A DNA stretch of 64,000 nucleotides from an uncultured Bacteroidales bacterium (GTDB lineage: Bacteria; Bacteroidota; Bacteroidia; Bacteroidales; Bacteroidaceae): contig CADAJV010000005.1 of NCBI GenBank assembly GCA_902788275.1, positions 40,609 through 104,608 on the forward strand. Direction: 5' to 3'. Shown here piece after piece: positions 8,521-60,352 of this stretch (the stretch's first letter is position 1; every line of letters starts with the position of its first letter). The position numbers were made by a program, and so were the translations under genes. The notes beneath the pieces were generated by a model that searched no databases, was not told the origin of the DNA, and saw nothing but the letters and a program-made list of their open reading frames with translations.

Positions 8521-8636
8521 GGAGATAGAGGGAGATAGTCTGGAAGTTAAGAAGTTAAGTAGTTAAGCCGTTAGTCTTTCTTCTTTCGAACATTTCAAAT
8601 CTGTAAACGGTAAACGGTAAACTGTAAGCCGTAAAC
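8521..8636. repeat. GGAGATAGAG x2, GAAGTTAA array + GCCGTTAGTC junction, TTTCTTCTTTCGAAC spacer, 5x GTAAACG array
   Basis: Direct reading. 8563-8602 recurs as its reverse complement at 49598-49636. Confidence 0.9.
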
Positions 8637-49569: not shown

Positions 49570-49849
49570 GTTTACAGTTTATAGTTTACAGTTTACGGTT
49601 TGAAAAGTTCGAAAGAAGAAAGACTAACGGCTTAACTTCTTAACTACTTAACTTCTTAACTACTAAAACGTTTACGGTTTACCGGACTTGGCTTCTATAA
49701 CCAATAACCAATAACCAGTTGATAATTGAAAGTTGATAATTGAGAATTACTTTCCGGACTTGGCTTCTATAACCTATAACCAATAACCTATAACCTTTTT
49801 ATTTTGTCAAGGTATAATATCTATAACCTATAACCAATAACCTATAACC
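49570..49849. repeat. 280-bp concatenation of six array types with two CCGGACTTGGC half-sites
   Basis: GTTTACR (49570-49601), junction + TTAACTWC (49631-49669), CCGGACTTGGC (49682-49692, 49754-49764), ATAACCAA (49695-49716), GTTGATAAT (49718-49748), CTATAACC (49767-49795, 49821-49849). Confidence 0.9.
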
Positions 49850-57650: not shown

Positions 57651-57658
57651 ATATGAAT

Positions 57659-57925
57659 ATAGTTGATAGTTGATAGTTGATAATTGATAATTGTTTACGG
57701 TTTACGGATTTGAAATTGAACATTTAGGAGATAGAGGGAGATAGAGGGAGATAGAAGGAGATAGAAGGAGATAGAGGACGTTAGTCTTGACTATTTAGAA
57801 GTTAACTTCTTAACTTCTTAACTACTAAAACGTTTACGGTTTACCGGACTTGGCTAAATCTCAAACCTCAAACTATTCATTTAATTTTTTCAATTTTTTA
57901 ATTTTTTAATTTTTCAATTTTTTGC
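57659..57925. repeat. Concatenated arrays: GTTGATAR, GTTTACG, GGAGATAGAR x5, junction, TTAACTWC, GTTTACG + CCGGACTTGGC, CTCAAAC, TTTTTYAAT
   Basis: Direct reading. The last array (57877-57925) extends into the 3' end of the aminotransferase CDS (QKIEKLKN*). Confidence 0.9.
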
Positions 57926-59905: not shown

Positions 59906-59972
59906 GATTTTATCTGAAATTTAAGGTTTGATGTTTGAGCGTAACGGCTTCGCCGTGGTAGTTAAGCTGGAA

Positions 59973-60049
59973 GACCCCTATAACTCCCCTAAGGGAGGAC
60001 ACTGGCGTCGGGGATTAATTTTCCCCTTTAGGGGGATAAGAGGGGGCTC
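59973..60049. repeat. Triple-hairpin element, copy 3 (core degenerated to CTGGCGTCGG)
   Basis: gacccctataactcccctaagggaggacactggcgtcggggattaattttcccctttagggggataagagggggctc. Confidence 0.7.
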
Positions 60050-60061
60050 GTTATCTTAAAC

Positions 60062-60098
60062 CAAAAGTCCTGCTTCCTTATGTGAAGCAGGACTTTTG
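60062..60098 (-). terminator. Candidate attenuator terminator in the pheA leader
   Basis: CAAAAGTCCTGCTTC-loop-GAAGCAGGACTTTTG, a 15-bp perfect stem, followed on the minus strand by GTTT. The 5' arm CTGCTTC can alternatively pair with GAAGCAG at 60140-60146. Confidence 0.6.
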
Positions 60099-60144
60099 TT
60101 GTCTTTCTATTGTGTGTGTTAGGTTACTGCACAGCCTTACTGCT

Positions 60145-60207
60145 TCACTTCTTTGAGGAGGTAAAGTAATAAAAGTAAAAGCCGAAAAACTGTGACTGAG
60201 GATTCAT
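60145..60207 (-). CDS. Phe/Tyr-rich leader peptide MNPQSQFFGFYFYYFTSSKK
   Basis: Translated by hand codon by codon. 8 of 9 consecutive residues are Phe or Tyr. It lies between a -7 box and a terminator hairpin upstream of pheA. Confidence 0.6.
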   Translation of the reverse strand: MNPQSQFFGFYFYYFTSSKK

Positions 60208-60240
60208 ATTGATTTAATCTCGGATGTTTTGATTCGGCTG

Positions 60241-60248
60241 CAAAGTTA
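60241..60248 (-). promoter_or_regulatory. Candidate -7 box TAACTTTG for the pheA leader transcript
   Basis: The reverse complement of caaagtta matches TAnnTTTG, 34 nt upstream of the leader ATG at 60207. Confidence 0.5.
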
Positions 60249-60352
60249 AACAAATGTTCGTAAACGCAAGCCTTTTTCTGAAAAAAATCATACTTATGCC
60301 TCAAAAAAAATAATTCGTTGCCCCAAGTTTGCCAGTTATGCTCCAAAATATG

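Follow-up and report, generated by a model that had tools for sequence, protein, structure and literature searches.

A probable phenylalanine- and tyrosine-sensing leader-peptide attenuator in front of pheA in an uncultured Bacteroidales bacterium and its relatives

The pheA locus considered here lies in a 64,000-nucleotide stretch (hereafter the window) of contig CADAJV010000005.1, from an uncultured Bacteroidales bacterium of the family Bacteroidaceae (GenBank assembly GCA_902788275.1). On the minus strand of the window, four genes follow one another: pheA (59905-59072), which encodes prephenate dehydratase (PDT) with an ACT domain (Pfam PF00800 at 1e-56, PF01842); a class I/II aminotransferase gene (59088-57898); a DAHP synthase/chorismate mutase fusion gene (DAHPS/CM; 57650-56586); and tyrA, encoding prephenate dehydrogenase (PDH; 56518-55742). 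The Pfam domains bear out this order, which an initial annotation made from the letters alone had already given. The next upstream gene, encoding a CDP-alcohol phosphatidyltransferase, is on the opposite strand, and the divergent intergenic region in front of pheA holds a short leader in which a miniature open reading frame (mini-ORF) rich in Phe and Tyr codons precedes a terminator hairpin. Comparison with related genomes, together with RNA folding models, leads us to regard this leader as very probably a ribosome-mediated leader-peptide attenuator that senses charged tRNA-Phe and tRNA-Tyr and controls pheA, the first regulated gene, and the genes behind it.

All leader coordinates are on the minus strand and were read directly from the window sequence. 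The Bacteroidetes-type -7 box TAACTTTG (60248-60241; consensus TAnnTTTG) is located 33 nt before the leader ATG, and a TTG at 60269-60267, 18 nt upstream of the box, is the candidate -33 element. The mini-ORF, MNPQSQFFGFYFYYFTSSKK, consists of 20 codons plus TGA (ATG at 60207, TGA at 60147-60145). Its regulatory codon run, FFGFYFYYF (60189-60163), carries 5 Phe and 3 Tyr codons in 9 residues, so that eight of nine consecutive codons specify amino acids made by the operon, and it is the only mini-ORF of 8 to 45 codons on either strand of the 64-kb window with at least six Phe or Tyr per nine residues. A 46-nt spacer (60144-60099) separates the stop codon from a hairpin at 60098-60062, a perfect 15-bp stem with a 7-nt loop that a terminator scan also picked up. 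Because this hairpin sits within the divergent intergenic/promoter region, there is no upstream gene that it could terminate. Its 3' arm begins with seven bases (60076-60070) that recur as a GAAGCAG copy at 60146-60140. The -7 box, the 20-codon ORF, the 46-nt gap, the 15-bp hairpin, and the GAAGCAG copy all lie where the initial annotation had put them. Its further statement that a U-rich stretch follows the hairpin stands as to the presence of the tract (UUUUGGUUUAAG, 60066-60055) and needs correction as to its placement: the first four U and a G of UUUUGGUUU (60066-60058) sit inside the stem, leaving a free U tail of only GUUUAAG. The leader region as a whole folds at -44.2 kcal/mol (z = -4.4 against dinucleotide-preserving shuffles). 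A 69-codon minus-strand ORF at 60137-60346, which overlaps the leader in a different frame and spans the promoter, was taken to be a mechanical ORF.

Minimum-free-energy folds divide the leader RNA into four segments. Segment 1 (60196-60171), which overlaps the first Phe/Tyr codons, and segment 2 (60152-60129), which overlaps the TGA stop, are the 5' and 3' strands of a 1:2 helix that is absent from the initial annotation. Segment 3 (60098-60082) comprises the terminator 5' arm (60098-60084) and two loop bases, and segment 4 (60076-60062) is the terminator 3' arm; together they form the 15-bp hairpin, at -24.8 kcal/mol. Alternatively, the two stretches of segment 2 that make up the antiterminator strand, GUGAAGCAG (60148-60140) and GGCU (60136-60133), can pair with AGUC and CUGCUUCAC in segment 3 (60094-60082), forming a 2:3 helix.

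The window PheA protein shares 93% identity with its counterpart from an uncultured rumen Bacteroidales genome, and its other near relatives by PheA belong to the Bacteroidaceae and Prevotellaceae. From such relatives, 80 pheA loci (L001-L080) were sampled, one per species; one of them comes without upstream sequence, leaving 79 that could be tested. A mini-ORF with at least 7 Phe or Tyr per 9 residues is found within 600 nt upstream of pheA in 76 of the 79, and the mini-ORF of L054, which lies further upstream than 600 nt, brings the total to 77 Bacteroidales species with a Phe/Tyr-rich leader, with conserved runs such as YFYFYFYF. Cultured carriers include Phocaeicola plebeius (L026), P. massiliensis (L052), and Paraprevotella xylaniphila (L049). 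The same loci supplied 824 kb of control sequence with 6,888 mini-ORFs, of which only 3 come up to 7 of 9; the displaced L054 leader itself accounts for two of them, which leaves one other among the 6,888 (a background of about 1 in 6,900 is used below). The two loci lacking the leader are L068, which has no Phe/Tyr mini-ORF, and L072, which has only a degenerate one, MAFMYTFTLATSKSEAVCVKKDDINKK; these may represent loss of the attenuator. The distance from leader to pheA exceeds 340 nt in L054 and L071, where insertions probably separate the two.

Seventy-eight leaders could be brought into a single alignment (A2), and their common features extend well beyond the codon run. The leader ATG is invariant, the in-frame Phe/Tyr run is present in 78 of 78, and no leader has fewer than 3 Phe or fewer than 3 Tyr codons (medians, 5 and 4.5), with a Trp codon appearing in four. 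Blocks of conservation comprise the ATG, the last part of the Phe/Tyr run (TAC TTT TAC TTT), GTGAAGCGGGA, TCCCGCTTC, and GAAGCGGGA followed by TTTTT. An exact TAnnTTTG occurs no more than 83 nt upstream of the ATG in 74 of the 78, mostly 18 to 36 nt before it, and the window box aligns with TAATTTTG and TAAATTTG of L001 and L002, so that the -7 box proposed earlier for the mini-ORF is a shared one. The initial annotation had suggested looking in relatives for a Phe/Tyr-rich mini-ORF plus hairpin upstream of pheA and would have counted a lack of the mini-ORF as a refutation, which its presence in 77 of 79 loci clearly contradicts; the hairpin is present in all aligned leaders, including 18 in which a simple perfect-stem finder missed it and the alignment reveals one with a mismatch or bulge. 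A profile of 71 leaders, from which the window and its 6 nearest relatives had been excluded, still recognized the window leader; the match extends over model positions 8-166 and scores 44.9 bits, compared with 5.2 bits for the highest of 5,000 shuffles, which makes the leader a clear member of an uncurated family of Bacteroidales pheA leaders. Beyond the small size of the parts, nothing suggests that a U-rich mini-ORF and a hairpin have come together here by chance, and we discount this reading almost entirely: it is already refuted by the conservation in 77 of 79 species against a background of about 1 in 6,900, by the covariation described below, and by the 44.9-bit score of the leave-clade-out profile. 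With respect to codon usage, 79% of the Phe codons in the leaders are TTT, compared with 26% in the pheA genes of the same loci; this bias could reflect slower decoding or the pairing of a U-rich run with the purine-rich segment 2.

All three helices, terminator, antiterminator, and 1:2, show compensatory changes across the alignment. In the terminator (3:4), 91% of cells are paired and 8 of 12 pairs are changed on both sides; none of 500 shuffles reaches these values, and a slid helix is at most 55% paired. For the antiterminator (2:3), 84% of cells are paired, compared with 37 to 49% when the helix is slid, and 6 of 11 pairs are changed on both sides. Some changes run jointly through all three strands: columns 77/161/177 read A/T/A in 33 leaders and G/C/G in 16, and the window itself carries A/T/A at columns 81/157/181, a site at which G/C/G is found in 69 leaders. 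When each species is taken on its own, the strongest duplex that upstream RNA can form with the 5' arm of the terminator comes to a median of -18 kcal/mol, for which comparison with shuffles gives a median z of -4.5, and cognate strands pair better than non-cognate ones in both helices (3:4, p = 3e-12; 2:3, p = 4e-8). The pairing of GAAGCAG with CTGCTTC pointed out in the initial annotation is hence part of a longer interaction, that of GUGAAGCAG/GGCU with AGUC/CUGCUUCAC, which is conserved and covaries with both partner strands.

The 1:2 helix behaves similarly. Because MAFFT places its 5' strand in different columns for each leader class, we relied on the cognate-versus-non-cognate duplex test, in which the outer stem gave -8.4 kcal/mol for cognate and -6.6 kcal/mol for non-cognate strands (p = 1e-7). 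The sequence of this outer stem varies by species (CACAG/CUGUG, ACAUAC/GUAUGU, ACGC/GCGU), and the minimum-free-energy folds of the 78 leaders show region 2 bound to sequence upstream of it, through a median of 9 of its 10 bases. The fold z-scores are moderate (median, -2.2).

Another line of evidence concerns what segment 2 is conserved for. Its core, GAAGCGGG, is the most conserved block of the alignment, and yet it is found in all three frames relative to the ATG: the stop codon falls before the core in 9 leaders, on it in 24, the window included, and after it in 45. In the alignment, two extra bases are found in the Phe/Tyr run of the window and its six nearest relatives (L001-L004, L006, and L007) and seem to account for their frame, in which AAG TGA AGC is read with an in-frame TGA (a codon reading made by hand), whereas most other species read the same bases as GTG AAG CGG GA., giving Val-Lys-Arg-Glu or Asp. 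The distance from the core to the conserved end of the Phe/Tyr run, by contrast, is hardly free to vary; one spacing accounts for 61 of the 78 leaders and all lie within 3 nt (the count is anchored at column 58, one base ahead of the codon assigned by hand). In the window, the core begins 19 nt after the first base of the last Phe codon. The nucleotide sequence of segment 2, as judged from this pattern, is under selection at the RNA level.

These observations also bear on the idea that the Phe/Tyr-rich peptide is a functional small protein, for instance a membrane peptide, encoded by a small gene of its own for which the hairpin is merely the terminator. In favor of such a reading, the peptide is conserved, many relatives share a SNKVKREFVCV tail, and a terminator does follow the ORF. 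We nonetheless find it quite improbable. The tail corresponds to the antiterminator strand read in one frame, and leaders that have these nucleotides in either of the other two frames, untranslated or with a stop codon among them, keep them as well, so that the tail shadows the RNA. Outside the Phe/Tyr run the peptides vary freely, in sequence and in length (16 to 34 residues), and the element always precedes pheA on the same strand. Moreover, the terminator 5' arm has a conserved, covarying alternative partner, which a plain terminator does not need.

A terminator/antiterminator pair would, taken alone, fit any translation-independent RNA switch as well (a T-box, a riboswitch, or a protein-bound leader), with the ORF being incidental. 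Here the invariant ATG and the in-frame Phe/Tyr run of all 78 leaders argue otherwise, as does the manner in which the run varies: Phe and Tyr codons interchange freely by second-position T/A changes while staying aromatic, which is the mark of a codon pattern and not of a ligand pocket. Nor do database searches point to such a switch. No Rfam family was found anywhere in the window at gathering thresholds, and between 59500 and 60700 the weak matches admitted up to E = 10 include no T-box or riboswitch family and, likewise, no match to Phe_leader (RF01859). We therefore hold a switch of this kind to be very improbable. Three groups of sub-threshold Rfam matches were set aside. Thr_leader (RF00506) reaches 24.6 bits against a threshold of 55, with its alignment confined to the terminator hairpin; the enterobacterial small RNA family sraL reaches 30.4 bits on the plus strand at 59957-60097, against a threshold of 39, and is regarded as an artefact, its alignment being best over the terminator hairpin, as reverse complement, and over G/C hairpins in an inserted sequence described further below; and the matches to microRNA families are driven by the hairpin.

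Taken as a leader-peptide attenuator, the element would work as follows. Transcription would start a few bases past the -7 box at 60248-60241, yielding a nascent RNA with the four segments in order: segment 1 with the Phe/Tyr codons, segment 2 with GUGAAGCAG and GGCU over the stop codon, and segments 3 and 4 as the terminator arms. On a leader that carries no ribosome, 1:2 and 3:4 would both form and transcription would end near 60060. With Phe and Tyr plentiful, the ribosome would reach the TGA at 60147 and cover segment 2, so that segment 3 would pair with segment 4 and transcription would again end. With Phe or Tyr scarce, a ribosome stalled within 60189-60163 would melt the 1:2 helix and leave segment 2 free from 17 nt past the first base of the final Phe codon onward; the freed strand would then take segment 3 before segment 4 exists, no terminator would form, and RNA polymerase would enter pheA. 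We infer in this scheme that the mini-ORF is translated, that ribosomes stall in it, that transcription and translation are coupled sufficiently closely, and that the hairpin terminates.

Folding calculations in which a 30-nt block forced to be unpaired stood for the ribosome (the footprint size being modelled) reproduce this logic. The 2:3 helix forms in nascent RNA that extends to the terminator loop when the A site is at codon 7, 11, 14, or 15, and it does not form when the A site is at codon 20 or at the stop. This is the behavior that the initial annotation had proposed, a stalled ribosome allowing the antiterminator and a ribosome at the stop codon allowing the terminator, and had suggested examining through alternative folds. 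Overall, sequence comparison supports its interpretation and extends it by the 1:2 helix and by the frame-independent conservation of segment 2.

Several points weigh against this interpretation. The first is energetic: the terminator, at -24.8 kcal/mol, is much more stable than the antiterminator, at -11.6 kcal/mol, and it wins in every masked full-length state, so that a working switch would have to be a kinetic, co-transcriptional one, like the classical systems. In addition, the U-tract of the window is interrupted (UUUUGGUUU) and thus weaker than the tails of its relatives, which show a cleaner U-run, GGGAUUUUUUU, with UUUUUUU straight after the stem. The spacer from terminator to pheA is unusually long, at 156 nt, compared with 7 to 90 nt in other loci, and it contains TAAATTTC (59923-59916, minus strand), a 7/8 match to TAnnTTTG located 10 nt before the pheA ATG; if active, this could in principle drive pheA transcription that bypasses the attenuator. 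For this organism and its close relatives the support consists of sequence comparison and folding models, and the covariation statistics come from related sequences, so that their p-values overstate independence and are indicative only. The literature searched yielded no demonstration or test of ribosome-polymerase coupling in Bacteroidetes. As for read-through under amino acid limitation, its sole support would come by analogy, from the condition-dependent read-through of the pheA 5' region in Flavobacterium psychrophilum.

The weak U-tract and the equilibrium advantage of the terminator, together with the silence of the literature found on the efficiency of intrinsic terminators in this group, are also what could be said for a mini-ORF that is translated and regulatory but acts through Rho-dependent polarity or through translational control of pheA. 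Such a mechanism seems to us improbable, if somewhat less so than the other alternatives. It leaves aside that the hairpin and U-run are kept, with compensatory changes, in 78 species and that a second conserved copy of the 3' arm stands at a fixed distance past the regulatory codons. Furthermore, the pheA start may follow the hairpin after as little as 7 nt or as much as 156 nt, which makes a structure masking the pheA start site unlikely. Leader-peptide attenuation through the terminator/antiterminator choice accordingly remains our preferred explanation of the locus.

Attenuators of this general design are well known. In the E. coli pheL-pheA system, a short ORF with regulatory codons controls pheA through the choice between terminator and antiterminator, by way of 1:2, 2:3, and 3:4 pairings. 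The window leader shares this four-segment logic, but it lies outside the corresponding family and has no detectable similarity to it. It also differs in that pheL uses Phe codons only and controls the gene for chorismate mutase/prephenate dehydratase, not a Phe-plus-Tyr operon, and in that the window has the Bacteroidetes -33/-7 promoter type and no Shine-Dalgarno sequence. With respect to the number of amino acids sensed, the closer parallels are the multivalent attenuators of E. coli, such as the thr leader with Thr and Ile codons and the ilvGMEDA leader with Leu, Val, and Ile codons, in which shortage of any cognate amino acid relieves termination. The window leader likewise carries codons for several amino acids, in this case Phe and Tyr, matching the products of the operon, in another phylum. 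The pheL-pheA attenuator is curated in Rfam as Phe_leader (RF01859), a family described from gamma-proteobacteria (Gurvich et al. 2011, PMC3082878).

Nearer relatives have been noted within the phylum. For the pheA 5' region of F. psychrophilum, a start site has been mapped and a separate 5' transcript of 171 nt recorded (PMC9723704, supplementary Table S7, Appendix D9, 2021), and the supplementary text of the same study cites condition-dependent read-through and an operon expressed most strongly in minimal medium. Like the window, this locus has pheA followed by an aminotransferase gene and, in front of them, a mini-ORF with mixed aromatic codons, MNTNNTFYSNNSFYFYWNIGRDCYMVI; the terminators are alike (AATCCCGTC..GGCGGGATTTTTTTTT in F. 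psychrophilum and ATCCCGCTTC..GAAGCGGGATTTTT in Bacteroidales), and in the F. psychrophilum RNA, too, the 3' arm is repeated upstream, with a pairing energy of -14.4 kcal/mol between this repeat and the 5' arm. The differences are that its peptide has fewer and more scattered Phe/Tyr codons and one Trp, and that the element appears in a supplementary table without covariation analysis or mutational tests (PMC9723704). Its similarity to the Bacteroidales leaders is marginal, 14.9 bits and confined to the terminator, which makes common descent plausible and no more. Whether the Bacteroidales and F. psychrophilum elements together constitute a phylum-wide, uncurated family of dual Phe- and Tyr-sensing attenuators is, in our judgment, an evenly balanced matter.

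In Bacteroides thetaiotaomicron, an attenuator was predicted before pheA > hisHb > aroA-aroQ > tyrA (Merino database; Song et al. 2005, PMC1173090, Table 7). Compared by table entry, this prediction shares with the window the bacterial order and the operon architecture, and a terminator and antiterminator are flagged; being structure based, the entry names no leader peptide and gives no conservation or covariation. The Bacteroid-trp leader (RF01692), a curated family from the same phylum, is associated with tryptophan genes (Weinberg et al. 2010, PMC2864571); set beside our leader by its description, it belongs to a different operon, and it has no match in the window. Full-text literature searches found no experimental study of a Bacteroides pheA leader. 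The abstract of Vitreschak et al. from 2004 reportedly mentions attenuators in Bacteroidetes/Chlorobi. The B. thetaiotaomicron transcriptome paper treats leader-peptide-like small ORFs in general terms, and its supplementary Phe_leader matches are weak; Bacteroidetes fall outside the coverage of Naville and Gautheret (2010). The initial annotation overlooked that attenuators of this kind had been described in F. psychrophilum and predicted in B. thetaiotaomicron. As the mechanism is of a textbook kind and had already been noted in the phylum, in B. thetaiotaomicron as early as 2005, the leader is not new in kind, and its value is modest, coming from the dual Phe and Tyr codons, the breadth of conservation, and the absence of a curated family.

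Transcriptional control in Bacteroidales is poorly charted, and rules based on Shine-Dalgarno sequences and sigma-70 promoters are inapplicable to it. Our results propose a concrete regulatory mechanism for aromatic amino acid biosynthesis in gut and rumen members of the order, and the 78-species alignment with its covarying helices could seed a curated RNA family, which would keep the mini-ORF from being overlooked or mis-annotated. The textbook picture of attenuation is left unchanged. Should the phylum-wide grouping with F. psychrophilum prove true, it would amount to a new Rfam family and to a natural two-input switch, responding to Phe or Tyr shortage, in dominant gut and rumen bacteria. 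A working leader-peptide attenuator would also imply tight transcription-translation coupling in Bacteroidetes, and the leader is a candidate Phe/Tyr-responsive part for Bacteroides engineering. Attenuator RNAs can have further roles: rnTrpL acts in trans in Sinorhizobium. By analogy, the terminated transcript of about 175 nt might do the same here.

How far control by the attenuator would extend into the operon is less certain. A 247-nt gap between the aminotransferase and DAHPS/CM genes (57651-57897) consists almost wholly of short tandem repeats (CAACTAT x5, CTCCYTCTAT x5, GTTAAGAA x2.8, and TTTAATTT x5), so that co-transcription of DAHPS/CM and tyrA with pheA is assumed and uncertain. The gap could harbor an internal promoter. 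In F. psychrophilum, the supplementary table lists a separate SigA start site ahead of the DAHP synthase gene (PMC9723704).

The long interval between terminator and pheA includes about 100 nt of extra sequence (60050-59950, minus strand) that alignment with the nearest relatives, L001 and L002, shows to be missing from them. This stretch lies outside the switch and lengthens the 5' untranslated region; it is rich in G/C runs and contains an imperfect inverted repeat (59972-59995/60025-60048, 75% complementary). A search of the window for further copies found none. It may be a small inserted element. Finally, the motif CCGGTAAAYCGTAAAC occurs six times in the window (0.02 copies expected), at 8607, 49670, 51870, 57693, 57832, and 60402, with five of the six copies on the minus strand and about 45 nt of flanking sequence in common between those at 49670 and 57832. 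The leader promoter has one copy about 150 nt upstream of it, and the motif can be read either as a dispersed repeat or as a binding site.

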